The notes under the pieces were generated by a model, which saw only the letters and a list, made by a program, of their open reading frames with translations, did no database searches and was not told where the DNA came from. From Parcubacteria group bacterium Gr01-1014_38 (GTDB taxonomy: Bacteria > Patescibacteriota > Andersenbacteria > UBA10190 > CAIZMI01), in NCBI GenBank assembly GCA_007376145.1, contig VMFP01000002.1:8679-72678 (forward strand): a stretch of DNA of 64,000 nt, given 5' to 3'. Of the stretch, positions 2,353 to 39,315 are shown piece by piece. Numbering within the stretch: the first letter of the stretch is position 1; the number at the start of each line of letters is the position of its first letter. The translations under genes and the position numbers were made by a program.

Positions 2353-3270
2353 ATGTACAGATATCATCATCCCACGCCGATTGTGATAAAGCTCACTGAC
2401 GAGCTTGGTTTTCAATTGAGACAAAAAGCAGCGGAATATGTTGCCGCTAATCAGAATCGAACAGGGGCGGAAAGAGGAAGCTCGGAAGAGCAAGGGTTTG
2501 GCGCGCTTGCAGAAATGGTTGTTCGAAATAAACTCGGAATGCCTGAAATTAACCCCGAAAATCATCCGCTAGGATACGATATTCTGTTACCATCCGGCGT
2601 AAAGTTGGACGTGAAGTGCCGCGGTGGGGCGCTAGCATTCAAGGAAGAATATGAAAGTAGTGATGGGATAATGAGAGAGGCCAAGCATAATTTCTTTGCA
2701 CGTCAAATCCATGATGAAGAATTGGATACTGAAATTTACTTAATGACCCACCTCGAAACACCAAGCAACCGCGAACTTCCCGGCACGACGCGACAAAGGA
2801 AATGGATAGTCTACATCTGCGGCTGGGTATCGAAAGAACGAGTTGTACGAGAAGGCGTTTACCTGCCGCGCGGCTCCCTAACCGAACAAGGCAGGACTTG
2901 GTTCACTTACCGAGGACAAGAAGTAGAATTCTATAACCGCAATCTGAACGGCCTAGAAAAGATAGAGGATTTGTTGAGTATTGAGCGTACTGATATTGAA
3001 AAAGACAAGCACCACCAAGGCGATTTGAATCTAACCTCCGTTGATGCAGTGCGAATCGTTTACGACCTCATTGGTCGCGGTGTGCTCTCAGAAAAACACC
3101 TTGCCTTTGTTCAGAAAGAAACTGGCCTGGCCAAAATTGTGAAGCCGATTTTACACTCAAATCAGTATTTCCACCTTCTGAATTGGCTCAAAGGAAAAGG
3201 TGTGTTGACTGATAGTGAAATTAAAAAAGCGCAGCAAATTCTCCAAGAGGAGCCGTATAGCGGAATCTAA
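2353..3270 (+). CDS. Putative type II restriction endonuclease (PD-(D/E)xK-like), the convergent partner of the methyltransferase
   Basis: 305-aa ORF in a low-GC stretch. GYDILLPSGVKLDVKC fits a D...(D/E)xK nuclease motif. Its 3' end overlaps the MTase gene by 4 bp. No family assignment is possible from sequence alone. An alternative start is the MVVRNK methionine near 2514. Confidence 0.4.
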   Translation: MYRYHHPTPIVIKLTDELGFQLRQKAAEYVAANQNRTGAERGSSEEQGFGALAEMVVRNKLGMPEINPENHPLGYDILLPSGVKLDVKCRGGALAFKEEYESSDGIMREAKHNFFARQIHDEELDTEIYLMTHLETPSNRELPGTTRQRKWIVYICGWVSKERVVREGVYLPRGSLTEQGRTWFTYRGQEVEFYNRNLNGLEKIEDLLSIERTDIEKDKHHQGDLNLTSVDAVRIVYDLIGRGVLSEKHLAFVQKETGLAKIVKPILHSNQYFHLLNWLKGKGVLTDSEIKKAQQILQEEPYSGI

Positions 3271-4403
3271 AATAGCTTTAGTTTGTTGCTCTCTGCCTTG
3301 TATTGAGTTTCAGCTTCTTTAATACGTTGTTTGGAAACCTCGATGTAATCAACCTTGTGCTTTTTGAAGAGATACACTTCTTGATTTTTCTCAACACCAA
3401 TAAATTTTCTTCTCTCCAGAACTGCCGATACAAGAAAACTACCGCTTCCACAAGCGTTGTCTAATACAATATCGCCTTCCCTTGTGAAGGTTCGGATCAA
3501 GTAACGGCCAAGTTCTATTGGTTTTTGCGTTGGATGATAAACTTCTCCTTCGCTTTCGGCAGTTTTGAAATAAATAACATCAGTTGGGTATCGTTCGCCA
3601 TTGCTTTTCACCTCGACAGTTTTGAAATCGCCATAACTACCCGTTAACTGATCCTTTCTAAAACCTTTATTGTAAGGTTCGCCATTGCTCATTTGAGGAT
3701 TGTACGTTGGTTGGCTCTTGTAAAAGACGAGAACATCCTCATGCTTCCTCAGCGGTTGTTTTTTTGCGTTCAAGAAATTTGTCGGTTTTGACTTAACCCA
3801 CGTTATTTTATATTTGAAAATTTTTGGATTAGAAAGCATCAAGGTAGCGGTAAAAAGTCCTTGCGCCGTGAGGACAATAACTCCTTCGTCTTTAACAATT
3901 CTTTCGTAGTGCAGCCATAGTTGGTCAAGCGGAATCACGCTATCCCAGTGATTTTGCGTAGTGCCATAAGGAAGATCGCACAAAATCATGTCTATTGATT
4001 TTGCGGGAACGCCTTTCATTATTTCCAAACAATCACCCTCAAGTATTTTATTTTCAAAATGAGCAATCGTCTTTTTGCTTTTAACCTCTTCGGCTTTCGG
4101 CTCTTCTACGCCGAGATTTTTACGCAGATACCATAAACAGTAGGTATTGACCGGCAATCCTTCTTGTTGTGCGCGTTGTTCAAGTTCCAAATAGGAATTT
4201 GTTCTTAACAGGTTACGTAGTTCGTTGCTTCCGAGATCGGCGATGCTTTTATATACATCTTTGTTTCTTGAGCCAAAAGCTAAGATAAACCCCTTTGCTT
4301 TCAGGTTCGCTTCCTTGTAGTCGGGGAAGTACACTGCTTTGAAAATCTGATTACTCGGCATGAATGTATTATAGTATGATACCCACGGATTTTCCATTGG
4401 CAA
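3267..4403 (-). CDS. DNA methyltransferase (N6-adenine/N4-cytosine, beta-class, PF01555-like)
   Basis: Motif IV CDLPYG (DPPY-like) comes before motif I DNACGSGSF, and HPTQKPIEL is the PF01555 signature. Low-GC composition. Confidence 0.8.
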   Translation of the reverse strand: MPMENPWVSYYNTFMPSNQIFKAVYFPDYKEANLKAKGFILAFGSRNKDVYKSIADLGSNELRNLLRTNSYLELEQRAQQEGLPVNTYCLWYLRKNLGVEEPKAEEVKSKKTIAHFENKILEGDCLEIMKGVPAKSIDMILCDLPYGTTQNHWDSVIPLDQLWLHYERIVKDEGVIVLTAQGLFTATLMLSNPKIFKYKITWVKSKPTNFLNAKKQPLRKHEDVLVFYKSQPTYNPQMSNGEPYNKGFRKDQLTGSYGDFKTVEVKSNGERYPTDVIYFKTAESEGEVYHPTQKPIELGRYLIRTFTREGDIVLDNACGSGSFLVSAVLERRKFIGVEKNQEVYLFKKHKVDYIEVSKQRIKEAETQYKAESNKLKLF

Positions 4404-24777: not shown

Positions 24778-26205
24778 ATGAACCGATCGGACCCCGTGCA
24801 TACGTGGCGAGAAGCGAGCGACGCATTCTTTTTGGCGGTTCTGCTGATCGCTGTTGTTTCTGTTGCCGGGTCTGTCCTCACCTTAACCAGATTTTCGCAG
24901 GATCTCGGACCGGTGAGTGCAACGGCAACTCCGGAGAATGGCGGTCCACCGCCGCCCCCGCCACCTCCACCGCCCCCGCCTCCACCACCGCCTCCCCCGC
25001 CACCTCCACCGCCCCCGCCTCCACCACCTCCACCCATCGGTGGGCCGCCACCGCCCCCACCGATTGGTGGTCCGCCCCCGCCTATCGGGGGTCCTCCGCC
25101 ACCGCCGATTGGCGGGCCCCCACCGCCAGACGGCATCGTGCCGCCACCGGTCGGCGTCGGGCCTCCCCAACCTCTTCCGGGGCCGTTCGCCACGGCGCCG
25201 TTCACCGCGTCTTCGGTGATCACTGCTCTCGGTCCTGGCAGGCGGCCTATGCTCAACGTTGCGGCGTTCGTCGCCGTCGTGGCGGCGACGCTCACTGCCG
25301 CGAGTACCGCGCTTCTTGCTGCTGCCGCTCTTCCCGGGGGCTTCGTCAGCCTCCCCCAATCGCTCTTCCCTTTTCTTGCCTTGCATCGTCCCCGCCGGTC
25401 TTGGGGTCGGATCGTCGAGGAGCGCACGAACCTTCCGGTGGCGGGCGCCGTCGTCACGATCCTCGATATGTCAGGAAAGCCGCGGGAGACCGTCTCTTCC
25501 CGGAGCGACGGCACCTTTGGAGCGCTCCTTCCTCGCGGTTCCTATCAGCTCTCCATGCAGCACACCGACTTCGCGTTCACGAGCGCGCCAGAAGGCGTCG
25601 TGCTTTTTCCGGAAGAGCGACTCTACACGGGCGGGTTCCTCCGGGTGGAAGACGAGGAGCAGATGGTGCCCGCGCTTTCCCTCGTCATCGGTATGAGACC
25701 CACCCGGGTCCGACGCCAAGTCCTCCGGGGCGCCTTCCGTTCCTTCCTGGAGCGCCTTCGGGTCCTTCAGGCTCGTCTCGCTCTTCCCGTCCTTCTCACC
25801 GGTGCCGCAATCAATTCTGTCGCTCTCGTGCTGAATCCCACCCCTCTCCTCGTGAGCTACGAGATTCTCTACGGTGTCTTCCTCACCTTTGAGCTTCTCC
25901 TCTCCCGCGTCGCCCGCCGCGCCCTCGGACGCGTCCGCGACGCTGTGACGCGCAGCCGTGTGGGTCTTGCCGTCGTCCGCCTCATGGATATGAAGACGCG
26001 GCGCCTCGTGGAGACCCGCGTCACCTCGTCTCGCGGAAGCTTCCTCTTGATGCCCCCGCCCGGGCGGTACCGCCTGCAGGTGGCTCACGCCGCCTACACT
26101 CCCTACACGAGCGATCTCCTCCGCATCGGCCGTGGAAGAACGAGTGCCGTCCGCCTGAACGTGGACCTGGAGCCCGGAAGCATGGCCGGGGCGCAGGCGA
26201 TCTGA
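24778..26205 (+). CDS. Membrane-anchored surface protein with a 30-residue polyproline run, IGGPPPP repeats and two CarboxypepD_reg-like beta-sandwich repeats
   Basis: N-terminal TM FFLAVLLIAVVSVAGSVL. DNA 24946-25035 encodes 30 consecutive Pro. Downstream segments VAGAVVTILDMSGKP...DGTF and VGLAVVRLMD...RGSF resemble carboxypeptidase regulatory-like domains. Confidence 0.6.
   Translation: MNRSDPVHTWREASDAFFLAVLLIAVVSVAGSVLTLTRFSQDLGPVSATATPENGGPPPPPPPPPPPPPPPPPPPPPPPPPPPPPPIGGPPPPPPIGGPPPPIGGPPPPPIGGPPPPDGIVPPPVGVGPPQPLPGPFATAPFTASSVITALGPGRRPMLNVAAFVAVVAATLTAASTALLAAAALPGGFVSLPQSLFPFLALHRPRRSWGRIVEERTNLPVAGAVVTILDMSGKPRETVSSRSDGTFGALLPRGSYQLSMQHTDFAFTSAPEGVVLFPEERLYTGGFLRVEDEEQMVPALSLVIGMRPTRVRRQVLRGAFRSFLERLRVLQARLALPVLLTGAAINSVALVLNPTPLLVSYEILYGVFLTFELLLSRVARRALGRVRDAVTRSRVGLAVVRLMDMKTRRLVETRVTSSRGSFLLMPPPGRYRLQVAHAAYTPYTSDLLRIGRGRTSAVRLNVDLEPGSMAGAQAI
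24946..25182 (+). repeat. Low-complexity CCN-repeat DNA encoding poly-Pro/IGGPPPP on the + strand and poly-Gly on the - strand
   Basis: Seen directly in the sequence. Confidence 0.9.
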
Positions 26206-27925: not shown

Positions 27926-28000
27926 CGCCGGGTGGAGAAGTGGCATCTCGCCAGGCCCATAACCTGGAGATCGCGGGTTCAAATCCCGCCCCGGCCACCA
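27926..28000 (+). tRNA. tRNA-Met (CAT) with initiator-like features: unpaired C1:C72 and A11:U24
   Basis: Acceptor CGCCGGG/CCCGGCC, D-arm GAGA-AGTGGCA-TCTC, anticodon stem-loop CCAGG-CCCATAA-CCTGG, T-arm GCGGG-TTCAAAT-CCCGC, discriminator A plus CCA. Coordinates are +/-1 because of a one-base inconsistency between the displayed text and the ORF track. Confidence 0.7.
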
Positions 28001-28005
28001 GCAGG

Positions 28006-28038
28006 AAATGATCCCAAGGACCTGGGGATCATTTCCTT
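28006..28038 (+). terminator. Hairpin AAATGATCCCA-aggacc-TGGGGATCATTT followed by TCCTTGT, just after the tRNA
   Basis: ~10-bp stem plus a T-rich tail, seen in the sequence. Confidence 0.4.
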
Positions 28039-28165
28039 GTGGGGATTGCAGAGCAGAGGCGCCGAACCAGGCGGACGGGAGGCCGCTTGTCAGACAGCGG
28101 CCTCTGCGTTGTGCGGACCAACACGTTGCGTCGGCAATGCATCTTCCGTACACTCCTTCCGGCTG

Positions 28166-28240
28166 GGCTGGGTAGCTCAGTGGCAGAGCATCGCACTCAT
28201 AAGGCGAAGGTCGTGGGTTCGATCCCCACCCCAGCTACCA
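28166..28240 (+). tRNA. tRNA-Met (CAT), elongator type (could alternatively be tRNA-Ile2 decoded via lysidine)
   Basis: Acceptor GGCTGGG/CCCAGCT (G1.U72), D-arm GCTC-AGTGGCA-GAGC (C11:G24), anticodon loop CTCATAA, T-arm GTGGG-TTCGATC-CCCAC, encoded CCA. Confidence 0.8.
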
Positions 28241-28242
28241 AA

Positions 28243-28282
28243 GAAAAAAGGCCGTGTCTCGAATAATCGAGGCGTGCCTATC
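28243..28282 (-). terminator. Imperfect hairpin plus T-run (read on the minus strand) ending the minus-strand island operon, abutting the tRNA-Met 3' end
   Basis: The minus-strand reading ggcacgcctcgattattcgagacacggcc is followed by tttttt. Confidence 0.3.
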
Positions 28283-28296
28283 AAGGAGAGCAGAAG

Positions 28297-28479
28297 TCAT
28301 CCTTGAGTTAGTTCGAGAAGCGACCGAAGGTACTGCTCATATTCAGGTCGTAGGCGAAGGTACTCCTTTACCCACTCTTCGGCGGCTTCGGGGTATTCAA
28401 TGGCCGCCACACACTCTTCAATCGTCGGCAGGCGGTCATGAGGAAAGTTCGTCTTCAGGTACTTTTCCAGGATGCTCAC
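28297..28479 (-). CDS. Small acidic hypothetical protein (60 aa), GTG start
   Basis: ORF in the low-GC island, translationally coupled to the upstream 235-aa gene by a 3-nt gap. Confidence 0.35.
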   Translation of the reverse strand: MSILEKYLKTNFPHDRLPTIEECVAAIEYPEAAEEWVKEYLRLRPEYEQYLRSLLELTQG

Positions 28480-28482
28480 GGT

Positions 28483-29190
28483 TTATTCTCCTGTGGTTGA
28501 GGGTTGGCGGCTCATGTACTTCTCAAGAATCTTTTTCGCCGCATCGTAGTCAACGTGCTCTGCAGCGGGTGGCCCCGCGCGGAGACCTGCTGCTAGGAGT
28601 AGTTCCAGGTGCTCACGCGGCACAGTGTGCAGCGTATCAGCATCAACCACTGTCTCGGCTCGCCAGGCGAAGGGGAGGTCTTTCAGCGCAGTGGTCAGAG
28701 TGGTACTAATACTCACCCGTGCGTGCAGGCGTTCAGTCCAGTCGTGTATGTTCTCTTCATTGTGGCGTTGGAGGCTGCGGTGCAGCCGCAGAGCGGCAGC
28801 CAGTGCTGTGTGAAGTGCCTTGTCGCCAGTGAAAAGCGCAACACAGGCATCCTGCCATACACGATACTGTTCGGACTCCATCTCAAAGGCGGGCAGTGTG
28901 TCGCGGGTGTCTAGGACAACACCGTCGTGCCGTCGCAGTGCGTAGTAGCAGAAGTGGTAGAAGGTTTTGTCTTTCTGCTCAATCGCGAGCAAAACATTTT
29001 CGCAGGGGTTAGCGAGAAGATGTTCGCACCGTTCTGGTGCTCCATCTTCAGCAACTACTATCGCAGCACTATAGCCTTGCGGCGTTGCCTGGCGACTCTT
29101 TTCTTCCAAACGTTCCGCGACCTGAGCGAAGTTCTCCCTTCCTGCCAAAACGAGATACGGACGCAGGTTGGCGTGAAGTTGGCCACTCAT
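28483..29190 (-). CDS. Hypothetical protein (235 aa)
   Basis: Low-GC island ORF. No recognisable motifs. Confidence 0.45.
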   Translation of the reverse strand: MSGQLHANLRPYLVLAGRENFAQVAERLEEKSRQATPQGYSAAIVVAEDGAPERCEHLLANPCENVLLAIEQKDKTFYHFCYYALRRHDGVVLDTRDTLPAFEMESEQYRVWQDACVALFTGDKALHTALAAALRLHRSLQRHNEENIHDWTERLHARVSISTTLTTALKDLPFAWRAETVVDADTLHTVPREHLELLLAAGLRAGPPAAEHVDYDAAKKILEKYMSRQPSTTGE

Positions 29191-29597
29191 TTGTATTCTC
29201 CTGTGAAAGAACGTGTGTTTTATCGGTCTGTTTTTATCCTACTGTCATAGTATGGCGTGGTCATTCAATAAAGCAAGGAGTTTTGTTTTTGGATGGCTAC
29301 CCTAAAACGCAAGAGGCTACCCCCGTTGGGGGGAGGGTACCCCCACCATAGGGGGTGGTTCCAAACCACTTTCAAACTCCAGATGGGTGCGGCACTATGA
29401 GAGTTGAGGGGCAGGCTTCAGCGTACCAACGCCACTAAAGATGTCCTTCAAATCGGCTAACTCCTTGCATAACCTGTTCCAATGAGTTCTCATTACGTCT
29501 ACCAACGTAGATTTTCGCTTCGGGAAGTGCTAAAAAAGAGTTACCTGGTCGTTCTTTTGCCAACCACATACCTCAAACAAGCGAGAGGAGAACCCTT

Positions 29598-30179
29598 ATG
29601 CAGCTTGTCCAAGACTACCGTATCCGTGAAGTGCACGGCACGCACTTCTCAAATGCCCCCTTCCGGTTTCTGCTGGAAACCGTCACTGACGGCTTTCCCA
29701 AAGACGCAGGCGAGCTAGTGTTCGACAAGGAAACGTGCGAACGGCATGGCATTTCACCTTCCCTTGATCTGGTGAACCGCAAACTGCGCTGTACGCTGAG
29801 GCCTCGTGTTCTCAAACGGAACACTGGCGGTCGTAAAGGCGATGAATGGTCGTTCCCTGATAGGCAAGACGTTCAGTCTGACGATATACTCATCAGTCAG
29901 ATCAGACGCGATGAAAAGTGGACACCCGAGTACAACGTCGGCGCGCCCCACGATGCCTTGAGGCAGGAGATCCATTACCACCTCTACGCCTACTCGGATG
30001 ACGGCACGGATGGAATCCACCCTTCACCAACCAACTGTCCGCTGTACAATCTCACGGTTGAGCTAACAGAGGATCAGTTTAGGGAGTGTACACAGTTTGC
30101 CCCTGGCACGGTGCTTAATGTCAGCTTCGCTCTGCTTCCGCCCGAACCCAAGCCAGCTACCGAAGAGGAGAAACAATGA
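29598..30179 (+). CDS. Hypothetical protein (193 aa)
   Basis: Low-GC island ORF with an RBS GAGAGGAGAA before the ATG. No recognisable motifs. Confidence 0.45.
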   Translation: MQLVQDYRIREVHGTHFSNAPFRFLLETVTDGFPKDAGELVFDKETCERHGISPSLDLVNRKLRCTLRPRVLKRNTGGRKGDEWSFPDRQDVQSDDILISQIRRDEKWTPEYNVGAPHDALRQEIHYHLYAYSDDGTDGIHPSPTNCPLYNLTVELTEDQFRECTQFAPGTVLNVSFALLPPEPKPATEEEKQ

Positions 30180-30535
30180 ACTGGCCAGCTGAGATTTTCG
30201 ACGCTTTCTCAGAAGCAGTAGACGTTGATCCTGTTCCTGGCAGTAGTAAAGAGGAGGTTATCCAGTATCTCCTTGTCGAAACCGCGCGACGAGCGGTCTG
30301 GCGAGCGAAAGCTGATCCCACTAAGCTCGATGCTGCCTACCGTGCGCCTTACACGCCACTAGGATCAGTGAGTGTCGAGGGAATGATCAGCAAAGGTCTC
30401 AAAGCCAAGAGTATGACGATCAAGCCCGCCTGGCATGAAGCAGTGGATCGTCTCTACGCTTTCGTGGCTGACAACCCTCAACTGATCTGCGATCAGTTCA
30501 AGGATCAGCAGGTTGAGTACTGTGATGCAATCTGA
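30176..30535 (+). CDS. Hypothetical acidic protein (119 aa)
   Basis: Overlaps the upstream stop (ATGA). Followed by the terminator. Confidence 0.45.
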   Translation: MNWPAEIFDAFSEAVDVDPVPGSSKEEVIQYLLVETARRAVWRAKADPTKLDAAYRAPYTPLGSVSVEGMISKGLKAKSMTIKPAWHEAVDRLYAFVADNPQLICDQFKDQQVEYCDAI

Positions 30536-30542
30536 TCATACA

Positions 30543-30575
30543 CCGCCAAAGCAAGAAGCAGAGGCGGTTTTTTTA
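30543..30575 (+). terminator. Rho-independent terminator CCGCC-N15-GGCGG followed by TTTTTTT
   Basis: Seen in the sequence. Confidence 0.45.
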
Positions 30576-30791
30576 TCTACGCGTTATTGTAGGCCAGCGC
30601 GTATGTGCCTGACATTAATCTTTCTCTGAACCGCCACATTCGCTCCATCGAGCGTAGAATCGAGTTCAATTTTCTGGTAACGTGGGCTACCATGAGACAG
30701 ATTTGAAGTGAAACGCAGCGGACGGAATTCCCGTATTCCGCGTTGCGACGATACCCCGCCGTCGGCCCTACCATTGGAGTAACGTAGAACT

Positions 30792-31472
30792 ATGCGACTC
30801 TCTTCACGTCCTGTTGAAACCTTTTTCCAAACCTGGACGCCGGAAATGGCGTATGTCCTCGGGTATTTTGCCGCCGATGGTTATATGTACCGCAATCCAC
30901 GCGGGTCACATTATGTCGGCTTCGTCTCCACTGATGAGGAACTTGTCCGTCTGGTCCGGTCGCTGATCGGCACCTTGAACAGCATCGAGGTTTACCGGCC
31001 AAAGAATAAAAACTGGAAGACCCGATACACGCTGCAGGTTGGAAGTCGGAAGATTTTTGAAACACTCAGTGATCTCGGATTTTCTCCCGCTAAGAGCCTC
31101 ACGGTGTCCTTTCCGCTTGTTCCCCTTTCCGTGTTATCGCACTTCGTCCGAGGATATTTTGACGGTGATGGGTGTTTGTCCTTCGGCACCTATGCGCGAA
31201 AGAACCGGAAAAGCAAAGCACAAGTCCTGTTCGCACGGTTCATCAGCGGCAGCGAGTATTTCCTCAAGGGTTTGCAGTCTGCTCTCCTGCTCGGGGAAAT
31301 CGGTCCGGGATCACTGGGACACCACGGGAAAAATTTTCGTCTTCAGTACGGGATGCACGATTCGTTCCGCCTATACAAATTGATGTATCCGACTTATGCT
31401 GTTCCCTGCCTTCTCCGAAAGCGAGAGAAATTCGAGCGAGGCCTCGTAGTAATGTCCGGGCCGGTCGTCTAG
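30792..31472 (+). CDS. LAGLIDADG homing endonuclease (two-motif, monomeric type)
   Basis: Motif 1 LGYFAADGYMY and motif 2 VRGYFDGDGCLSF at the typical ~100-aa spacing. The stop codon TAG (31470-31472) lies inside tRNA-Asp. Confidence 0.7.
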   Translation: MRLSSRPVETFFQTWTPEMAYVLGYFAADGYMYRNPRGSHYVGFVSTDEELVRLVRSLIGTLNSIEVYRPKNKNWKTRYTLQVGSRKIFETLSDLGFSPAKSLTVSFPLVPLSVLSHFVRGYFDGDGCLSFGTYARKNRKSKAQVLFARFISGSEYFLKGLQSALLLGEIGPGSLGHHGKNFRLQYGMHDSFRLYKLMYPTYAVPCLLRKREKFERGLVVMSGPVV

Positions 31473-31535
31473 CCTGGTTCAAGACGCCTCCTTGTCAAGG
31501 AGGAGACCACGGGTTCAAATCCCGTCCGGCCCGCC
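31457..31535 (+). tRNA. tRNA-Asp (GTC)
   Basis: Acceptor GGGCCGG/CCGGCCC, D-arm GTCT-(11-nt loop)-AGAC, anticodon stem-loop CCTCC-TTGTCAA-GGAGG, T-arm ACGGG-TTCAAAT-CCCGT, discriminator G plus CCA. Confidence 0.85.
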
Positions 31536-31540
31536 AGAGT

Positions 31541-33160
31541 TCAAAAGCGGTCGCGCACTTCGTAAATCGTTGCGCGGCTGGGTTCTTTCTTCCGCGCCTG
31601 CGGGTACTCGAACGTGCCGAGTGCCAAGAATTGATCCGCGAATCTCGGATCGACGAGAACGGGAAACGCCTCGCTTATGGTTCCACGGATGACGATATAC
31701 CGCACGTCCCACCGCTGGAGTTCTTGCCATTGCTCCTGACCGCTCGGAGTGTTCAGATGTGTTTCCGCAAAGACGGCTCGGCCTTCATCTTTCTCTCCAA
31801 AAAGGGCCAGCACAATACTGGAGCGGTGTTCGAAGGCAATCGTGCCGGGCAGCGCTCGCGCCGCCTGGATTGCTTGGTAGTATGCGTAGTCCGTTCCAAG
31901 ATTTTTCTGTTGAACTTCGCGGGCTTCGGCGGCCGTGTGCGCGGTCCACGGTCCGAGCGAGAGTCCGAGGAGGAGTACGCCCGCAACCATCGGCGCTGCT
32001 CGCGAGGCGCGTGGCCAGCGGAAGCTGACTTGTCGGACGGTCTGGATGGCTGCCTGGACTCCGGCAGCAAGCACCAGAAACAGCACAGGATAGAGCATCA
32101 CAAGGAACCGCTGGCGCACGCCCCACCAGGCGATCGGAACCGCAAGAAACAGAAATGGCAGAAGAATCAGGAGGAACCGCCGCAGGTGTCTGCGTGCGAG
32201 GAACACGATGCCCGCAAGAAGCAGGAGACTGGGGAATTCCTTCGGGTCGGTGAAGAAGGAGCGAAGTCGCGCCGGCCACGCGCGCGCCTCGAGCGTCGCG
32301 ATATCGCGAAGGATCCGCGGGGGCTCCCCCCACAGGCGGTCCACGCCAACGCTGGTCCAGATGGCGGCGTAGTTCTTTGAGAAATCGGCGAGCGTCGTCA
32401 CACCGAATGGCGTGGCCTCCGCGTCAGCAAAGTATTCCACGGGGAGCAGCGGCCGTCCGACGCGCGTGAAGAGCAGAGCGAACGGCAACCAGCAGACGAC
32501 CGCGGCCGCCAGCGCCGGTTTCATCAGGGAGCGTGGCTTCCAGTACACCAGCGCCAAGAGCGGAAAGAGTGCGAGGAGAAAGACTCCTTCAAAACGCGCG
32601 AGGGACGCCAGGGCAAAGAGCACTCCGGTGCCGATCGCGCCGCGGCGCGTTCGCGTTCGGAGGAACGCCAGCAGCGCGCCGAGGAACAACGCGATGAACG
32701 TCGTATCGGCGTATCCCCGCACGGATTGAAAGAGGAACGGCGCGACGGCCTGGAAGGGAGCGAGACCAACAACCAGTGCGACGTTCGAAAGTCCAAGTGT
32801 GCGTCCGAGGAAATAAAGCAGCGCGATCGCTACTAAGGACGCAATCATCGCGACCGCGATGGCCGCGCCTTCCCAGTCGAAAACCGTGTGGGCGAGCGCG
32901 ATGAGCGCGGGGTACACTGGCAGTCGCTTTTCCGCGACCGGGTACGAGCCTTTCAACAGTTCCTGCGCGATCAGAATGAAGTTGTAGGTATCGCCGCCCG
33001 GAAACGCTTTCCACCAGCGGAAAAACGCGATGCGGTGGGCAAGGGCGAGACCGAGAACCACGAAGAGACCCCCGTGCCTGCGGAGAAACCGCGCGCCCCC
33101 TGCGCCTACCAAGGCCAGGGACGCAGACGTTGCGGGGGCAAGACGCATGGAGATGAACAT
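31541..33160 (-). CDS. Polytopic membrane glycosyltransferase (GT39/GT83-like, ArnT/PMT family)
   Basis: More than 10 predicted TM helices with the N-terminal loop architecture typical of C-type lipid-linked-sugar glycosyltransferases. A weak assignment. Confidence 0.5.
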   Translation of the reverse strand: MFISMRLAPATSASLALVGAGGARFLRRHGGLFVVLGLALAHRIAFFRWWKAFPGGDTYNFILIAQELLKGSYPVAEKRLPVYPALIALAHTVFDWEGAAIAVAMIASLVAIALLYFLGRTLGLSNVALVVGLAPFQAVAPFLFQSVRGYADTTFIALFLGALLAFLRTRTRRGAIGTGVLFALASLARFEGVFLLALFPLLALVYWKPRSLMKPALAAAVVCWLPFALLFTRVGRPLLPVEYFADAEATPFGVTTLADFSKNYAAIWTSVGVDRLWGEPPRILRDIATLEARAWPARLRSFFTDPKEFPSLLLLAGIVFLARRHLRRFLLILLPFLFLAVPIAWWGVRQRFLVMLYPVLFLVLAAGVQAAIQTVRQVSFRWPRASRAAPMVAGVLLLGLSLGPWTAHTAAEAREVQQKNLGTDYAYYQAIQAARALPGTIAFEHRSSIVLALFGEKDEGRAVFAETHLNTPSGQEQWQELQRWDVRYIVIRGTISEAFPVLVDPRFADQFLALGTFEYPQARKKEPSRATIYEVRDRF

Positions 33161-33229
33161 ACCACGGTGATCGGTGCGTTCGTATCCCTCCAGGAGCGCT
33201 GCGAAGGGAACCTGTATGATGAGAGAACC

Positions 33230-34306
33230 GTGCGTCTCCGGTTCGCGATTGTTCTCGGCGTCGTGCTCTTGCTTGTCCTCGGCGCAGGGGTGAGATGGCG
33301 CCTGCAGAATCGTCTCGCCGATGTCCCGCAGCGGATCAGCGCGTTGCCGACGCCGGCGTCTCCACCGGTCTCGACTCCGGGGCCCCTCCGCGCTCCGGAA
33401 CTCGGAGTCTCAGGCGCGATGCTCGCCCGAGACGGCGTGGTGCGCGAAACGAACGCGCGGCGTTCCCGCGCTGACCTTTCGGTACTTCAAGAGCACCCGA
33501 CGCTCACGGCGGCTGCCGAGCGAAAAGTCGCGGACATGCTCGCACGGCAGTACTTCGCGCACGACAATCCGGATGGACGGGGAATTTCGACGGTCGTGTC
33601 CGGGCTCGGCTACGCGTACCTCCGCGTCGGAGAAAATCTCGCCCTCGGCAATTTTGCGAGCGACCAAGCGCTCGTGGATGCCTGGATGAACAGTCCGGGT
33701 CATCGCGAGAACATGCTTCACAAAGGCTTTACCGAGATTGGCGCGGCCGTGCGCCGCGGGACTTTTCAGGGGCGCGAGACGTGGCTGGCGGTGCAAGTCT
33801 TTGCGCTCCCGAAGTCCGCCTGTCCCGGCATGGATGATACGCTCCTGAAGAGCGTTGAGAGGCAGGAGGGCGAACTCGACAAACTTGACGCCCGCATCCG
33901 GGAACAGCGGACACGTGTTGAGGAGCTGGTGCGCGAGCGCGATGCGCTGGCGGCGGACATCGCGCGTCTTGTGAGCGAAGGAAACGCGAAGATTGCCGAA
34001 GGGAACGCTGAAATTGAGGAAGGGAATCGGATCTACCGTGAAACCGGAGACCGCAGCGCAGCCGAGCCGCACTGGACGAGAGGCGAACAGCTTCAGCGGG
34101 AAGGCGCGCAGAAGCATGAGGAAGCTCGCGCGAAAGAAACGGCGATGCGCGCGTTGGAAGACACGCTTGTCGCGCGTACCACCGAGGTCAATGAACTCAT
34201 TGCAACCTTCAACCGACTCCAGAAAGAGCAGCAAGTGCTCGTCGCGCGGGCCAACGCGAGCATTGAAGCCTTCAACGCTTGCGTTAAATCAATGGTGAGT
34301 CTCTGA
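33230..34306 (+). CDS. Membrane-anchored CAP/SCP (PR-1-like) domain protein with a C-terminal coiled coil
   Basis: GHRENMLHKGFTEIGAAV and YFAHDNPDG are CAP-domain motifs. A GTG start at 33230 gives the signal anchor MRLRFAIVLGVVLLLVLGA. The track ORF starts inside the upstream gene. Confidence 0.5.
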   Translation: MRLRFAIVLGVVLLLVLGAGVRWRLQNRLADVPQRISALPTPASPPVSTPGPLRAPELGVSGAMLARDGVVRETNARRSRADLSVLQEHPTLTAAAERKVADMLARQYFAHDNPDGRGISTVVSGLGYAYLRVGENLALGNFASDQALVDAWMNSPGHRENMLHKGFTEIGAAVRRGTFQGRETWLAVQVFALPKSACPGMDDTLLKSVERQEGELDKLDARIREQRTRVEELVRERDALAADIARLVSEGNAKIAEGNAEIEEGNRIYRETGDRSAAEPHWTRGEQLQREGAQKHEEARAKETAMRALEDTLVARTTEVNELIATFNRLQKEQQVLVARANASIEAFNACVKSMVSL

Positions 34307-34322
34307 TGGTATACTGCGCCGT

Positions 34323-35246
34323 GTGGCGAGCAGTGTTCCCAAACCTCGCGTGGCGGTAGTCTCCGGCACCGATCGGCGAGAAAATATCCGGCAAGCGCAA
34401 CTGCTTCTCGGTGATCCGTACGTCGAGCGCATCAAAACAGCGCGGCAGCTCTTCATTCACCCGAATCTCGTTTCCGACAAAAACCAACTTGCGAGTACCC
34501 ACGTCGAAGCCGTGCGTGCCGTGCTCGACATCATTTCGCTGCATCGCGGCGACGAGGTGCTCATCGGCGACGCGAGCTACCACGATACCAAAAAAGCGTT
34601 TGAGCGCTTCGGGTACGAGTCTCTCCGGCGCAGCGGGAACGCGCGGTTTCTTGATCTGAATGACGATGAAACCGTCGAGACGTTCGCCTACGACCGACAT
34701 CTCGCGCGCCAGCCGATGCCCACCAGCAAGACGGTTCTCGAGTCCGACTGCGTGGTCCTCATCGTTCCTCCCAAGATGCACAGCTACTACACCGTCTCCT
34801 TGAGCCTAAAGACGCATGTCGTCGGCAGTATGGTGGTGCCGCGCAGCCCCTTTGGCATTCACGCGCGGTGGCCCAAGGTGCACAGCGGGTATCTGGCCGC
34901 ACACCGAACGCTCGCCGACTGGTACCAGCAACACCCGGCACAGGCCGCCATCATTGACGGTCGAGAGGCGATGGAGGGAAACGGGCCGATGTCCGGGACA
35001 AAAGTCGAGCTCAACTGGGCCGTGGCTTCCCTGGATCCGGTGGCGGCGGATGCCATGGCCGCGTGGCTCATGGGGTTTACGCCCGACGAGATTGGGTACC
35101 TCGTGTACCTGAAGGCGGCGGGATGGATCATTGACCCTGCGGAGATGGAAGTCGTCGGAGAGCCGGGCTGGCAGCGGCTGCGCCAGGAACTCGCGCGCCC
35201 CGAGACGTGGCCCGAGATCGCCGAGTGGCGGGAGAACCATGAATGA
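34323..35246 (+). CDS. DUF362-like protein
   Basis: Pattern VAVVSG...IHPNLVS...VLIGDAS...IIDGREAMEGNGP resembles DUF362. A weak assignment. Confidence 0.4.
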   Translation: MASSVPKPRVAVVSGTDRRENIRQAQLLLGDPYVERIKTARQLFIHPNLVSDKNQLASTHVEAVRAVLDIISLHRGDEVLIGDASYHDTKKAFERFGYESLRRSGNARFLDLNDDETVETFAYDRHLARQPMPTSKTVLESDCVVLIVPPKMHSYYTVSLSLKTHVVGSMVVPRSPFGIHARWPKVHSGYLAAHRTLADWYQQHPAQAAIIDGREAMEGNGPMSGTKVELNWAVASLDPVAADAMAAWLMGFTPDEIGYLVYLKAAGWIIDPAEMEVVGEPGWQRLRQELARPETWPEIAEWRENHE

Positions 35247-35748
35247 GCATGAGAATCGTCTGCGAGACTTCGGCCGCTCCCTCGGAGAGTTCCTCTCTCG
35301 GCTGATTATTCCCGAGGCGGGGATTCCCCGACCGATCATTAGCCTGAAAAGCGCGATGCCCCTGCTTCTGCCCGTGAACCAAGACACCGTCGAAGAGCTG
35401 CGGCAGTTCGTGAAGGACCATCGGAAAGAGTTCCGCTCTGCGCTCTTGGTGCTCCACGTGCAGGGGTACAATGATCCCTACCACCGTCAAACCCTGACCG
35501 TGGCTCATCCGTATCAGGAGTTGGCGACCGGAGAGACCATCACGCGGATAGACGATCCGCGGCCCGTGAAGCTTGCGCGACTCGTGCTCCGAGAGGTGCC
35601 GTCCGAGTGGCGGAGCGTCAAGCCGCTGGAGCTTCTTCTCCAAGCACAGGCGCGGCACGTCCGCCATGGCGTCGCCCTCGGGGTCGGACCGACCGTTCCC
35701 CTGCGCGTGCCGCGGCAAGAGATTCCAGGTAAGGCGACGGGGATCTGA
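35239..35748 (+). CDS. Hypothetical protein (169 aa), coupled to the DUF362 gene by an ATGAATGA overlap
   Basis: ORF starts at the internal ATG 35239. Confidence 0.35.
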   Translation: MNEHENRLRDFGRSLGEFLSRLIIPEAGIPRPIISLKSAMPLLLPVNQDTVEELRQFVKDHRKEFRSALLVLHVQGYNDPYHRQTLTVAHPYQELATGETITRIDDPRPVKLARLVLREVPSEWRSVKPLELLLQAQARHVRHGVALGVGPTVPLRVPRQEIPGKATGI

Positions 35749-35761
35749 CCAAGACGAGCAG

Positions 35762-36967
35762 ATGGACAGGAGCATCGTGGTCTCTCTCCTTCGGAAGTTC
35801 AGCCTCCCGCTGGCCGTCGTGGTGCTCTTTGGCCTTGCGTGGAACGGGGTTCGGCGTATGCCACCGTCTCTGTCTCCCGTGGGGTCAGGGTCGGGCCTCT
35901 CGGCACTCGAGGCGTGTCTGTCCTCCCCCGGCTTTCGCGAGCGGGTCACGTGTTACCAGCCGATCTTGGAGGGGCAGCTTCAGGCGCAGGGACCGCGCGG
36001 CGTGCTGTCCGAGCTCGATCGACTGCAGGAGGAACGACCGGTGTTCCGAGCGCACTGCCATGACATGGCGCATGTTCTCGGGCGGTTCTGGATCGCTCGC
36101 GGGGGGACGGTGGCCGATGGCTTCCGGGAGGGTTCGAACATCTGCCACGCGGGATTCTTTCACGGCATGGTCGAGCGGGTGTTCCGAGGGGGGGAGAAGC
36201 TGACGGACGAGCCCCTGCACTTCTCGCCCGAGGAGCTGCGCGCGAAGGTCGCCACGGTCTGCGGCCCGGAAGTGCTGCAGACGACCAGCCGGAACATTCG
36301 CTTCCAGTGTTTGCACGGTCTCGGGCACGCCGTGGTCTTCTCGCTCGGGTACCGCTTGCCGATCGCGCTCGAGATTTGCGACGTCCTCCCCGGCAACTGG
36401 GACCAGAACTCCTGCGCTGGTGGAGCGTTTATGGAGAACATCACGGGCGTCGAGCGAGAACGGCGGATGCTCCGGGCAGGGGATCCCCACTATCCGTGTT
36501 CGATCGTTCCGCCGAAGTACCGCGATTCCTGCTACGGCATGCAGACCAGCTGGATGCTCGAAGACGGTCTGGCTTGGGACGCCATCATTGCCGCGTGTCG
36601 AGCGGCGGGCTCCTCCCAGCTCTCCTGTTTCCAGAGTTTCGGTCGGGACGTGAGTCCTCGGGTCCGTCAAGGCGGACCGGTCGCCTTCGTTCCCCTGTGC
36701 ACACAACTTGCACCGGATGAACGCGCGGCGTGCATTCGCGGGGCGGTCTACGCGCTGGCCGACCACACGTGGGATGGCCGCTATGCGTACCCCTTCTGTG
36801 CCGTGGTTCCGTCTGCGGATGTTCGTGCGGAGTGTTTCCAGCAGGCACACACTCACCTGCTCCGCTCATTGGAGCAACCGCCGGAAACAGCACAGCGCGG
36901 ATGTCTGGTGCTGAGCGACGGGAAGGACGTCTGTCTCACCACGCTCCAGCAACTCGTGACCTCCTGA
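35762..36967 (+). CDS. Secreted/membrane-anchored Cys/His-rich protein with repeated C-x-H-x3-H motifs
   Basis: Signal anchor LPLAVVVLFGLAW, then CHDMAHV, CHAGFFHG, CLHGLGHA and many additional Cys. Confidence 0.4.
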   Translation: MDRSIVVSLLRKFSLPLAVVVLFGLAWNGVRRMPPSLSPVGSGSGLSALEACLSSPGFRERVTCYQPILEGQLQAQGPRGVLSELDRLQEERPVFRAHCHDMAHVLGRFWIARGGTVADGFREGSNICHAGFFHGMVERVFRGGEKLTDEPLHFSPEELRAKVATVCGPEVLQTTSRNIRFQCLHGLGHAVVFSLGYRLPIALEICDVLPGNWDQNSCAGGAFMENITGVERERRMLRAGDPHYPCSIVPPKYRDSCYGMQTSWMLEDGLAWDAIIAACRAAGSSQLSCFQSFGRDVSPRVRQGGPVAFVPLCTQLAPDERAACIRGAVYALADHTWDGRYAYPFCAVVPSADVRAECFQQAHTHLLRSLEQPPETAQRGCLVLSDGKDVCLTTLQQLVTS

Positions 36968-36968
36968 C

Positions 36969-37508
36969 ATGGTGTATCCCACACCGGAACGCCTCCAGTT
37001 TCCCCTGTCCTCATACGTCGTCACCGGACGGAAGTTCTTGGACGAAGCGGTGTTCGGCGGGCAGTCGTGGGGACGTCACCTCGGTGAGGATTGCATTGCC
37101 GAGCCTGGAACGCCGGTCTGCGCGATTGGTGATGGCGACGTGGTCTACGCGGAGCTCCACGCGAGCTGGTTTCGGCGCCGCGGGAACTGGGGGCACGTGG
37201 TGATCCTCGGCCACACGCACGCGGCGGACGGTCAACCGTTTTATTCCGTGTATGGTCATCTCGGGGACTTCCGCGTGGCCGTCGGGAACCGCGTTCAAGG
37301 CGGAGACACGCTCGGCACGGTCGGAAAAGGCAGGACTCGCTCGAACGGCTGGTGGCCGGAACCGCACCTCCACTTCGCCATTTATCGCGGTCCGTGGGAA
37401 CATCACGTGCTCCCCGGCTATAGTCGCGAGAATGACGACCGCACGAAACTTGAGTACTGGGTAGACCCGTCGAGGTTCGTTCAGACCTACCTCTCACCGA
37501 TGTCATAA
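36969..37508 (+). CDS. M23 family metallopeptidase (LytM domain)
   Basis: HLGEDC, GDGDVVYA, GHVVILGH and HLHF match the M23 HxxxD...HxH signature. Confidence 0.75.
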   Translation: MVYPTPERLQFPLSSYVVTGRKFLDEAVFGGQSWGRHLGEDCIAEPGTPVCAIGDGDVVYAELHASWFRRRGNWGHVVILGHTHAADGQPFYSVYGHLGDFRVAVGNRVQGGDTLGTVGKGRTRSNGWWPEPHLHFAIYRGPWEHHVLPGYSRENDDRTKLEYWVDPSRFVQTYLSPMS

Positions 37509-37543
37509 AAAAAGACCCGTCGCGAACGACGGGTCGGGAAAAC
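37507..37543. terminator. Bidirectional intrinsic terminator between the convergent M23 and 580-aa genes: AAAAA-GACCCGTCG-cgaa-CGACGGGTC-GGGAAAA
   Basis: Perfect 9-bp stem. Read on the minus strand it is followed by TTTTTTT. Confidence 0.5.
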
Positions 37544-37572
37544 AATGAGCAGGAACCAGGGTGGTATGACGC

Positions 37573-39315
37573 TTACTCGATCGGGAGCGGAATCGCGCCG
37601 TCGCCGCGGGCGAAAACGTATGCTGGCGTCGTGTTCGCGCGTGACACACGGCGCCACCATGGGATGAGGTCCCGTAATCCCTCTTCGATCGCGAGAAAAA
37701 CCTTTCGCACTTCGTGGTTGACGTTCCATCCTGTCCGCTGCCAGGTGCAGAACTCCCACTGGCGGAGGTTTGCCACGATGTGAAAGCCAACGATATTCCC
37801 GAGTGCGAGCGAATACTGCCGAAGCATCGCCGGCACGTCGTGACCCTGAAGGAGCATATCGAGCTCACGGTTGCTTCGGTGAACCTCCGCGAAGGCTGTC
37901 GGAAGTTCAGGCGGTGCGGGTTTGTCGTACTGGTAGAAACCGAGGTCGGGCGTGAGGTAGGTACGGAAGTGCGTGCAGAAGCCTTGGCGTTGGAGGTCAC
38001 GCCAGCCGCGGAAGCTCATGAGACCCCGGAAGGGAAAGCTGACCGCTTCGAACTCCGCAGGAAGTTTGTCATACGGGTCCCGTGCGGTCGTGAACGGCTC
38101 GTGGGCCATCAGGTAAGCGAATGGTGGCGAGGGACGAGATTCCTTGGGGAAGAGGGGAAGGAGTGTGTGCTCCACGCTGTCTCGCCAGAAGGGGCCAATA
38201 TGTTCGATGCGCACCCGCCCTTTCTCTCCAGATGCCCCGGTATCGAACCATCCGCGCGTCGAGAGGTACCGCCAGTGCGCTCGGTCCCACGCGGTCGGCT
38301 CGAAGTGCCGAGCGAACTGGTGCGCGCCGATTTTCGCAGCCTCTTCGAGAACAAGCTCGACCAAGGTGAGGTTTTCCGGCGTCTCGTCAAGGAGGAGGTG
38401 CTTCAAGAGCATCGGGAATGCCTCACCGCTCACGCAGACGCCGACAGAAGTGAGCGTAGATGCAGGGAGAAGATTCCCGAGGATGTCGCAAGTTTCCCCG
38501 ATCACGCCCGTCTCGAGGTCTTTCGGCGTATTGTGGTAGAGACCGCCATACCGCTCACGGAGGAACGTCGGGAACGGACCAGTGAAGTTCCGTCCGACGA
38601 GTTCCTGGTAGAGACGGAACAGGACATCCGCAAACGAGACGACCGTTTCCGGATTCACGCTCCATCCCGCCGCCAGTTCACGCTCGATGGGATAGCGGCC
38701 CTTCGTGGACATGTCCACGTACCGGGTACTGAGCTCGATGTAGCCCGAACCCGGACGCGTCCACTCGATGCTCTTCGCGGCGAGAAGCGAGACACCCTCG
38801 AAGCAGAGCCAGAAGCTTGCCATCCGCGCGATAGAGTTGTGTCCGTACTTGTCGAGCCACGTGGTGAGAAACTTGCGGGTCTTCTTCGACTCCGCAAATT
38901 CTCGGAGGTATTGTGGATCCGCACCGCAGCACTCCAAGAAGTGATCGAACTCCTGACGGGCTTCTTCGCTGGATGCGAGAAAGCTCCCGAGGTTCGATAT
39001 ATTCTGAGCGCGGAGGAACGCGACTTCGTCTCCGCCGAATTCCCGTTCGACGGTAGAAAGACGCGTCGCCAGAAACTGGGGCAGAAAGCTCTCCACCCAG
39101 ACCCCGCGCAGGCCGCGGGGGTTCTTCATGCGGGAGAACATCGCGAGGAGTGTTGCTCCGATGTTCGGCGGCAGCGTGTGCATGAAGAACACGCGACGAT
39201 CGAGATTCGTAAAAAACGGTCGAAGAGCACGCGTTTCATCGGCGGTGAACGAAGTACCGAGCGAAGAAAAAACAAACTCTTTGGCAACATCCAGGACTGC
39301 TTGCGAGTACTGCAT
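37573..39315 (-). CDS. Hypothetical 580-aa protein with weak, tentative ThyX/Thy1-like segments
   Basis: GSGYIELSTRYV resembles the ThyX S-x-RYV segment, but the RHR motif is absent. The C-terminal ANLRQWEFCTWQRT...HEVRKV resembles the ThyX terminal helix. Very tentative. Confidence 0.3.
   Translation of the reverse strand: MQYSQAVLDVAKEFVFSSLGTSFTADETRALRPFFTNLDRRVFFMHTLPPNIGATLLAMFSRMKNPRGLRGVWVESFLPQFLATRLSTVEREFGGDEVAFLRAQNISNLGSFLASSEEARQEFDHFLECCGADPQYLREFAESKKTRKFLTTWLDKYGHNSIARMASFWLCFEGVSLLAAKSIEWTRPGSGYIELSTRYVDMSTKGRYPIERELAAGWSVNPETVVSFADVLFRLYQELVGRNFTGPFPTFLRERYGGLYHNTPKDLETGVIGETCDILGNLLPASTLTSVGVCVSGEAFPMLLKHLLLDETPENLTLVELVLEEAAKIGAHQFARHFEPTAWDRAHWRYLSTRGWFDTGASGEKGRVRIEHIGPFWRDSVEHTLLPLFPKESRPSPPFAYLMAHEPFTTARDPYDKLPAEFEAVSFPFRGLMSFRGWRDLQRQGFCTHFRTYLTPDLGFYQYDKPAPPELPTAFAEVHRSNRELDMLLQGHDVPAMLRQYSLALGNIVGFHIVANLRQWEFCTWQRTGWNVNHEVRKVFLAIEEGLRDLIPWWRRVSRANTTPAYVFARGDGAIPLPIE

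Follow-up and report, generated by a model that had tools for sequence, protein, structure and literature searches.

The genes of the low-GC island within a tRNA cluster of this Parcubacteria genome from groundwater were probably acquired independently of one another, and do not seem to form one four-gene toxin-antitoxin or defence system. It is probably best read as a mosaic accessory cassette of three independent units: the gene for P1, a predicted nucleotide-signal synthase with a cyclase fold; the coupled pair P3-P4; and P5, a free-standing LAGLIDADG endonuclease abutting tRNA-Asp. The first-pass annotation, made from the sequence, had suggested that the four genes preceding the endonuclease could represent an undescribed system; however, P1-type and P3/P4-type genes are never found together outside this genome, thus suggesting that the modules are independent of one another. 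Seven independent P1-type loci, including this one, and 16 independent P4-type loci were inspected, many of them on short contigs; tblastn recovered neither P3 nor P4 in the six other P1-type loci (L011-14, L015, L016/17, L027, L028, L029), nor P1 in any P4-type locus. There is a doubtful but not negligible prospect that the locus holds more than this, with the P1 family being a new clade of active synthases that forms an undescribed two-gene system with P2 or with a 132-147-aa partner, P4 having a new fold and P3-P4 constituting a second undescribed module borne by CPR bacteria.

Composition, borders and gene layout

The window referred to here is the whole stretch of DNA that was analysed (64,000 nucleotides). 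The 3.2-kb island (window 28241-31457) has a GC content of 0.526 as compared to 0.616 in the rest of the window, and GC3 is 0.53-0.61 in the five island genes as compared to 0.71-0.78 in five flanking genes, a deficit of approximately 0.15 which is common to all five. Comparison with the flanks thus bears out the low-GC island between tRNA genes which had been described, as do the tRNA calls of ARAGORN and Rfam. The left border is the 3' end of the second tRNA-Met gene, with which P1 and P2 are convergent, and the right border is tRNA-Asp; there are two tRNA-Met genes rather than one, the first of which is suggested to be of the initiator type by a 1:72 mismatch read by eye. The possibility of an assembly chimera was ruled out, as the region is reproduced in two other assemblies; one (L002) matches 27936-38116 with two mismatches (27944 and 28208), each of which falls in a tRNA-Met gene, and the other (L003) matches 28630-37349 with none. 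Rfam matched only tRNAs, whether gathering or permissive thresholds were applied, and neither group I introns nor riboswitches were found in the island. Elsewhere in the window, a second low-GC patch containing a DNA methyltransferase lies directly after tRNA-Lys, which suggests that tRNA-adjacent acquisition recurs in this genome.

The features of the island and its borders are as follows:

27926..28000, + strand: tRNA-Met(CAT) no. 1, first of the left tRNA cluster (ARAGORN; Rfam 58.9 bits)
28166..28240, + strand: tRNA-Met(CAT) no. 2 (ARAGORN, Rfam)
28243..28279, - strand: putative P1-P2 intrinsic terminator (hairpin 28249-28279, U-run 28243-28248)
28297-28479, - strand: P2, 60 aa, with a GTG start and an AGGAG ribosome-binding site (ORF list)
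28483-29190, - strand: P1, 235 aa, the largest island gene, a member of an unannotated family (ORF list)
29191..29597, no strand: divergent intergenic region, GC 0.47, the lowest of the island
29598-30179, + strand: P3, 193 aa (ORF list)
30176-30535, + strand: P4, 119 aa (ORF list)
30542..30575, + strand: putative P3-P4 intrinsic terminator (hairpin 30542-30568, U-run 30569-30575)
30792-31472, + strand: P5, 226 aa, free-standing LAGLIDADG homing endonuclease (ORF list; Pfam, PHROG)
31458..31536, + strand: tRNA-Asp(GTC), right border of the island (ARAGORN, Rfam)

The two divergent, coupled gene pairs were recovered with exactly the open reading frames first reported; the coordinates and sequence place a 3-nt gap between P1 and P2 and an ATGA overlap between P3 and P4, and a ribosome-binding site of the AGGAG/GAGGAG type can be read before each island gene. 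The small partners are acidic, as had been stated, with a pI of 4.7 for P2 and 4.8 for P4. Both promoters presumably lie in the divergent intergenic region. Each of the two proposed terminators folds into a hairpin followed by a U-run (-13.3 kcal/mol with a modest z of -1.7 for P1-P2, and -11.9 kcal/mol with a modest z of -2.2 for P3-P4), but neither was called by a strict terminator scanner. For the 215-nt spacer that precedes the endonuclease gene, the predicted fold is not more stable than those of shuffled sequences (z -1.25).

The P1 family and its predicted fold

No motif had been recognised in P1 to P4, and this holds for the sequence libraries, in which searches of Pfam, PHROGs, PADLOC and NCBIfam returned nothing except one PycC match at E 0.049; it does not hold for the predicted structure of P1, which has a nucleotidyl-cyclase fold. 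A word-indexed search had made P1 appear an orphan, a result overturned by an exhaustive search which found 87 representatives at E <= 1e-3 and 58 at E <= 1e-10. The family is patchy and occurs on both CPR-like low-GC contigs and high-GC contigs; it has no Pfam or NCBIfam model, and where source names were seen they all read 'hypothetical protein'. Many relatives carry a fused N-terminal DUF2934; P1, the only member of its own 90%-identity cluster, is a short form.

The template-free AF2 model of P1 (pLDDT 92.2) has the palm fold of the cyclase homology domain, beta-alpha-beta-beta-alpha-beta, and in structure comparison it matches class III nucleotidyl cyclases, nearer than mCpol, with the cUMP and cCMP synthases 7r65, 8jsf and 8jsz among the matches. 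The family alignment has D49, E53 and D114 in all 60 sequences, with R110, R158 and R177 in 56, 59 and 57 of the 60, respectively. In the model D49 ends strand 42-48 (beta1) and D114 directly precedes strand 115-120 (beta3); these two residues are a putative metal-binding pair, with their positional equivalence read from the secondary structure. Strand 157-162 (beta4) leads directly into helix 165-174, on which the alignment has no conserved Asn or Arg, the conserved R177 and N144 being located elsewhere. As read from its secondary structure, the model has no evident beta4-beta5 hairpin or alpha4 Asn/Arg transition-state pair, and for this reason the reaction of P1 could differ, being dinucleotide or oligonucleotide synthesis, or none.

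The cyclase assignment is a structural prediction, and the family has no sequence-profile link with Guanylate_cyc, GGDEF or PycC. Searches of Pfam with P1 and 60 family members found no Guanylate_cyc (PF00211) or GGDEF domain even at E <= 10, PADLOC gave that single PycC match among the 60, and neither P1 nor the profiles A1, A2 and A3 matched any PDB sequence. P1 probably makes a nucleotide signal and represents a new family of such synthases. We infer that it would use an NTP to make a cyclic nucleotide or another signal derived from nucleotides, and that it would probably work as a dimer of identical chains, as do its structural relatives.

The closest relative of P1 (L027, 49% identity) is also convergent with tRNA-Met(CAT), having a terminator and then the tRNA directly downstream, and P2 is absent. 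It has a tRNA-Met gene on either side and its neighbours are different, such that tRNA adjacency is all that it has in common with the island. The remaining relatives have either nothing downstream or a 132-147-aa partner unlike P2, and this partner overlaps the upstream gene and is kept in three independent long-form loci. The pairing of P1 with P2 is therefore not found elsewhere; tblastn detected no relative of P2 in any fetched locus and its cluster is a singleton, for which reason its reality as a gene is uncertain. P2 would be a lineage-specific addition which, if expressed, would most plausibly modulate P1. Two possible ties were rejected using hhalign, namely P2 as a truncated member of the 132-147-aa partner family A4 (probability 0.24%) and the 147-aa partner as a distant P4 homologue linking the modules (below 1%).

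The arrangement invites the suggestion that P1 is the sensor or synthase of a Pycsar-like or Panoptes-like defence system, the effector being P2, P3/P4 or the long-form partner. P1 would be a stand-alone cyclase without a sensor domain, as in Pycsar (PMC11224242), the conserved overlapping partner would fit such a system, and the neighbourhood of L016 contains a resolvase, DUF4238 and weak PADLOC candidate matches. However, nothing near P1 could be recognised as receiving or acting on a nucleotide signal; in P2, P3, P4 and the partner family, the family libraries found no cyclic-nucleotide-binding, TIR, CARF or SAVED domain, and inspection by eye showed no obvious transmembrane segment. The relatives of P1 do not match the PADLOC PycC models, their neighbours gave only marginal PADLOC matches, and P1 never accompanies P3/P4 elsewhere. 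The short-form relatives (L015, L029) are partnerless and sit among housekeeping genes, either between cell-envelope genes or beside ThrRS, a context which favours ordinary signalling over conflict, without revealing the pathway. We thus consider this form of defence system unlikely. CPR/Patescibacteria have tiny genomes in which few defence or signalling systems have been recognised. A family with a cyclase fold which is invisible to sequence libraries would, if borne out, add a candidate second-messenger synthase to these bacteria and give DUF2934 its first functional context.

The P3-P4 pair, the endonuclease and the origin of the island

P3 is known in three loci only, in which it is always immediately upstream of P4 and overlaps it. 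L001 and L004, one of them a Parcubacteria MAG, retain both the pair and the ATGA overlap, with identities to the island proteins of 60-62% for P3 and 73-78% for P4; C47, C65, C147 and C164 of P3 are identical in all three sequences, and over some 60-70 nt directly ahead of P3 the island sequence is similar to that preceding the L004 homologue. P3 has no match in Pfam, PHROG, PADLOC, NCBIfam or PDB sequences, and a metagenome scan with it was empty. P4 belongs to a sparse family of mostly helical, acidic proteins with an invariant core, TARRAxWR (ETARRAVWR in most members), and an invariant TPLGSV; its fold has no PDB or viral match. The proposed pairing therefore recurs, but only in part, as 13 of the 16 independent P4-type loci (L005/6 (= L018), L007-L010, L019-L026) have P4 without P3, among neighbours which are unrelated and mostly housekeeping genes. 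One P4 locus adjoins a PIN-domain gene. Because P4 is found alone in many genomes, it would be the autonomous core of a separate coupled unit which may travel with its conserved upstream sequence, with P3 as an accessory.

According to the first-pass annotation, such pairs are typical of toxin-antitoxin, toxin-immunity or phage-defence modules. On this reading, P1 and P3 would be toxins or effectors neutralised by P2 and P4. The translational coupling and size asymmetry of both pairs, the acidity of the small partners, the tRNA site with its foreign composition, the retention of P3-P4 in three loci, the sporadic distribution of the P1 and P4 families and the PIN-domain gene are all consistent with this. 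However, the pairing of P1 with P2 was seen in this genome only, the predicted fold of P1 is that of a biosynthetic cyclase and not a toxin, and the solitary occurrence of P4 in varied contexts is not the behaviour of an obligate toxin-antitoxin or toxin-immunity pair. PADLOC and Pfam recognised no toxin or antitoxin family, nor did PADLOC recognise any known defence family, and the neighbourhoods of the relatives are unconvincing as defence islands. Searches of phage, plasmid and viral-contig collections with P1, P3 and P4 were all empty, the viral-contig scan for P1 having used a sub-alignment of its family. Two such modules are thus quite improbable, although the predicted fold would keep a signalling or defence-like role alive for P1 alone, in a form other than that proposed. 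A coupled large protein and small acidic partner is perhaps best treated as weak evidence of a toxin-antitoxin system until the conservation of the pairing has been checked. It is very unlikely that P1 is a cyclase for the routine housekeeping signalling of CPR bacteria (making, e.g., cAMP), in vertical synteny with tRNA-Met and with the low GC as a local quirk, since the tRNA-Met adjacency of L027 and the housekeeping surroundings of the other short-form relatives are set against the GC3 deficit of all five island genes, the patchy family and singleton cluster of P1, the otherwise different neighbours of L027 and the presence of a homing endonuclease.

In the mosaic cassette, the third unit would be the endonuclease. 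Its reported position at the right edge was confirmed, with LAGLIDADG_3 matched in two stretches (E 2.7e-14), LAGLIDADG_1 at residues 121-162 (Pfam) and the PHROG endonuclease phrog_4645 at 2.7e-28; P5 thus has two LAGLIDADG-type domains in one chain, and the last 15 nt of its gene, stop codon included, lie within tRNA-Asp. The locus does not resemble a tRNA-targeted integrative island, as there is no integrase among its open reading frames (ORF list, Pfam) and the far border does not repeat the 3' end of the tRNA; the only att-like copy of the 3' end of tRNA-Met is a 17/20 match that falls within P3 and is probably due to chance. Neither an empty site nor a donor was recovered. A homing or recombination route of acquisition, which we purely infer, would use the conserved tRNA genes on both sides as homology arms, such that cleavage by the endonuclease followed by repair could exchange cassettes without an integrase. 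The locus may thus illustrate how tRNA clusters edged by a homing endonuclease can gather unrelated cargo.

Comparison with known systems

Type II toxin-antitoxin systems share with the island two small, coupled, co-oriented genes, an acidic partner and a patchy distribution on acquired DNA; they differ in that no toxin or DNA-binding antitoxin domain was found here (Pfam, NCBIfam, PADLOC), the P1-P2 pairing is not conserved and P4 is mostly solitary. Class III cyclases (Ma1120, PDB 4wp3) resemble P1 in fold; where their two metal-binding Asp residues sit, the model of P1 predicts one invariant Asp closing beta1 and a second directly ahead of beta3, and a conserved Arg opens beta4 in both. P1 departs from them in having no sequence-profile similarity, an LDGAPE motif in place of the usual one at the first Asp, a long beta2-beta3 insertion and an extra C-terminal helical extension, the beta4-beta5 hairpin and alpha4 Asn/Arg again not being evident in the model; many of its relatives also carry the N-terminal DUF2934.

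The cytidylate cyclase EaPycC has a catalytic Asp pair and a substrate-contacting R142 (PMC11224242), and P1 likewise has an Arg at -4 from the second Asp (R110/D114 as compared to R142/D146 in EaPycC). Both are stand-alone proteins, P1 being of the same size of approximately 230 aa, and P1 has the structural matches 7r65, 8jsf and 8jsz and the weak PADLOC PycC match; the P1 family fails to score on PycC models. The Pycsar effector, a cyclic-nucleotide-binding domain fused to a transmembrane or TIR module, adjoins PycC (PMC11224242), whereas P2, P3, P4 and the partners have no cNMP_binding, TIR or PycTM/PycTIR match and the partners in the P1 family are an orphan 60-aa ORF or a 132-147-aa protein. 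Panoptes, consisting of the mCpol OptS and the membrane effector OptE, similarly places a small palm-domain nucleotide synthase beside a small partner; P1, however, is twice the size of mCpol, lacks a GGDD-type motif and is nearer to class III cyclases, and no transmembrane (S-2TMbeta) or CARF-TM effector was recognised and no PADLOC match to such a system was obtained.

Free-standing homing endonucleases occur in tRNA gene clusters, SegB of phage T4 being an example. P5 differs from SegB in being of the LAGLIDADG and not the GIY-YIG type, in lying in a bacterial chromosome and in that its homing is putative, but it resembles endonucleases of this kind in being free-standing, in abutting a tRNA gene and in having variable cargo alongside.

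The low-GC island and its borders

The island is real and mostly an ordinary mosaic accessory island, the one noteworthy element of which is the family of its 235-residue protein P1, previously unannotated and invisible to sequence libraries. As two other assemblies reproduce the region, one (L002) with 2 mismatches, both within the tRNA-Met genes, and the other (L003) with 0, it is not an assembly chimera. The island has a GC content of 0.526 against 0.616 in the remaining window, and a GC3 of 0.53-0.61 in its five genes against 0.71-0.78 in five flanking genes, in keeping with the low-GC interval between tRNA genes described in the first-pass annotation. The tRNA-Met and tRNA-Asp borders are likewise present; however, two tRNA-Met genes precede the island where only one had been claimed. 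The five proteins were deposited as TSC72855-TSC72859, four as 'hypothetical protein' and one as 'putative DOD family homing endonuclease'.

Features of the island and its borders
27926-28000, tRNA-Met(CAT), first copy
28166-28240, tRNA-Met(CAT), second copy
28297-28479, minus strand, P2, 60-aa ORF, 3 nt from P1
28483-29190, minus strand, P1, 235-aa ORF
29598-30179, plus strand, P3, 193-aa ORF
30176-30535, plus strand, P4, 119-aa ORF, ATGA overlap with P3
30792-31472, LAGLIDADG ORF, 226 aa, after P3-P4
31458-31536, tRNA-Asp

The two divergent, coupled pairs that had been reported were recovered, with the 3-nt gap between P1 and P2 and the ATGA overlap between P3 and P4, as were the acidic character of P2 and P4, the homing endonuclease at the right edge and both proposed terminators, each of which folds into a hairpin that a U-run follows, the z-scores being modest. 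The LAGLIDADG gene and tRNA-Asp overlap, the stop codon of the former falling 15 nt into the 5' part of the latter (31458-31472).

The island contains neither an integrase gene nor a convincing att repeat, and phage, plasmid and viral-contig collections yielded no relatives of P1, P3 or P4. The 20 nt at the 3' end of tRNA-Met (28225-28244) recur imperfectly (17/20) at 30147-30166, inside the 3' end of P3; this is probably a chance match, since an att site there would cut the conserved P3-P4 pair. Adjacency to tRNA genes is recurrent, being found in the window, beside the closest relative of P1 (L027, two tRNA-Met genes) and in two P4-type loci (L001 and L007, tRNA-Ile(TAT) nearby). The tRNA clusters may have served as conserved homology arms, and the homing endonuclease could have promoted the exchange of cargo between the tRNAs. 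P1-type and P3/P4-type genes were never found together outside this genome.

Two further features of the window were observed. A second, deeper low-GC island (2000-4400, GC down to 0.40) directly follows tRNA-Lys (2272-2346), with a 3-methyladenine glycosylase gene (1345-2055) just upstream. It holds a 305-aa ORF of no assigned family (2353-3270, plus strand) convergent with an N6_N4 DNA methyltransferase (3267-4403, minus strand), the two probably forming a type II restriction-modification module. The ORF at 24778-26205, an unusual low-complexity surface-type protein, has a poly-proline run of more than 30 residues, then PPPPIGG-like repeats and CarboxypepD_reg domains.

P1 as a predicted nucleotide-using enzyme

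Searches of P1-P4 against Pfam, PHROGs, PADLOC and NCBIfam returned nothing except a marginal PycC match for P1 (E 0.049), and a word-indexed search of 5.8 billion proteins matched P1 only to itself. Its apparent orphan status was overturned when 1.84 billion cluster representatives were searched exhaustively with HMMER: 87 relatives scored E <= 1e-3, 58 of them E <= 1e-10, and the closest had 49% identity. An alignment of 60 family members has three invariant residues (D49, E53 and D114) and ten nearly invariant ones (G50, P52, F77, R110, N144, W151, H156, R158, R177 and G202), with the motifs LDGAPE, R-x-[FYW]-Q-D, LHAR and WR-x-E; an N-terminal DUF2934 is present in 18 or more of the 60.

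In the P1 model, D49 closes the first core strand on its C-terminal side and D114 comes directly before the third; on this secondary structure, rather than on a residue-level superposition, they would correspond to the metal-binding aspartate pair of the cyclase fold predicted for P1. In EaPycC, the cytidylate cyclase of Pycsar, R142 contacts the substrate and D146 lies four residues on (PMC11224242); P1 R110 precedes D114 by the same offset and, judged again by secondary structure rather than superposition, may be its equivalent. No sequence profiles were found linking the P1 family to Guanylate_cyc, GGDEF or PycC, and in the model neither the beta4-beta5 hairpin nor the Asn/Arg pair expected on helix alpha4 is evident; for these reasons, we describe P1 as a predicted palm-domain, NTP-using enzyme that has a class III cyclase fold and belongs to a new family. 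A nucleotide signal is its probable product.

Seven independent P1-type loci were inspected. The closest relative (L027, 1-1199) has the interval between two tRNA-Met(CAT) genes to itself and leads straight into a strong, canonical terminator, P2, P3 and P4 being absent; it shares with the window the tRNA-Met adjacency and the convergent orientation of the P1-type gene. Two further short forms are also solitary, one amid glycosyltransferase/Mur-ligase genes (L015) and one adjoining ThrRS (L029). The long forms, with an N-terminal extension that is often DUF2934 (L011-14, L016/17 and L028), are each followed by an overlapping partner gene of 132-147 aa, whereas the short forms, that of the window included, lack it. 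The three partners (of L011, L016 and L028) are related to one another via that of L028 (blastp E about 1e-7 to 1e-8, five-sequence database) and matched nothing in Pfam or PADLOC. That the P1 family and this partner define an undescribed nucleotide-signalling or conflict system we regard as rather unlikely. In L011 (4904-7235) the 147-aa partner has a paralogue in the C-terminal half of a 229-aa protein just upstream (blastp about 2e-15), which itself comes after a sigma-70 region-4 gene, a context that hints at sigma/anti-sigma-like regulation.

P2 was rejected as a member of the partner family (hhalign probability 0.24%) and had no match in any fetched locus, L027 included; among the loci inspected, P1 is thus paired with P2 in this genome alone. 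P2 has a good ribosome-binding site and is a putative gene.

P4 as an autonomous gene

Relatives of P4 numbered nine in the protein collection (41-80% identity) and two among 185,579 GTDB species representatives (one Saccharibacteria, one Gemmatales), while a metagenome scan gave nine loci, eight of them new. Only three loci are known to hold P3: the window, L001 (62%) and L004 (60%, a Candidatus Andersenbacteria MAG). In each, its end overlaps the P4 gene immediately downstream. To this extent the suggested P3-P4 pairing is conserved, but P3 is absent from the remaining 13 independent P4 loci (tblastn E <= 0.1). The neighbours of P4 in these all differ, most of their names being read from translated ORFs rather than library matches: a PIN-domain gene, tRNAs with tiny ORFs, a radical-SAM gene, SpoVG, a Uma2-like gene (by eye), RuvB, aldose epimerase, a TPR protein, PP2C, CysRS, mevalonate-pathway genes and RF2. 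P4 is thus an autonomous small gene and P3 an accessory to it in three loci only. The small P4 protein is conserved, and no structural relative of it was detected; though less probably, its solitary copies could be orphan immunity genes.

Roughly the last 60-70 nt upstream of P3 are alike in the window and L004. In L001, an IstB/DnaC-like ATPase and an 89-aa ORF, not P1-P2, are divergent from P3-P4, and the P4 homologue (2486-2847) is split by a frameshift, residues 1-27 and 21-117 falling in different frames; this copy is either a pseudogene or misassembled. In two independent contigs, P3/P4-type loci adjoin a tRNA-Ile gene whose anticodon is the rare TAT (L001 121-195 and L007 2422-2494). 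In L025 (2346-6494), the genes on either side of a P4 homologue (39% identity) resemble HMG-CoA reductase and HMG-CoA synthase by eye and belong to an apparent mevalonate-pathway operon.

Comparison with known systems

With toxin-antitoxin systems, both pairs of the window share coupled, adjacent genes only, and the autonomy of P4 in 13 loci argues against the obligate toxin-antitoxin or toxin-immunity pair that the first-pass annotation had considered for P3-P4. Panoptes, which combines an mCpol synthase (OptS) with a membrane effector (OptE), differs in that P1 lacks the mCpol-type motif and its locus has no membrane or CARF effector. The second defining feature of Pycsar, an adjacent effector with a cyclic-nucleotide-binding domain, is absent from the window locus, and by sequence profile P1 falls outside the class III cyclases. 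In structure, however, the class III cyclases, Pycsar PycC among them, are nearest to the P1 model, and P1 would work in a similar manner.
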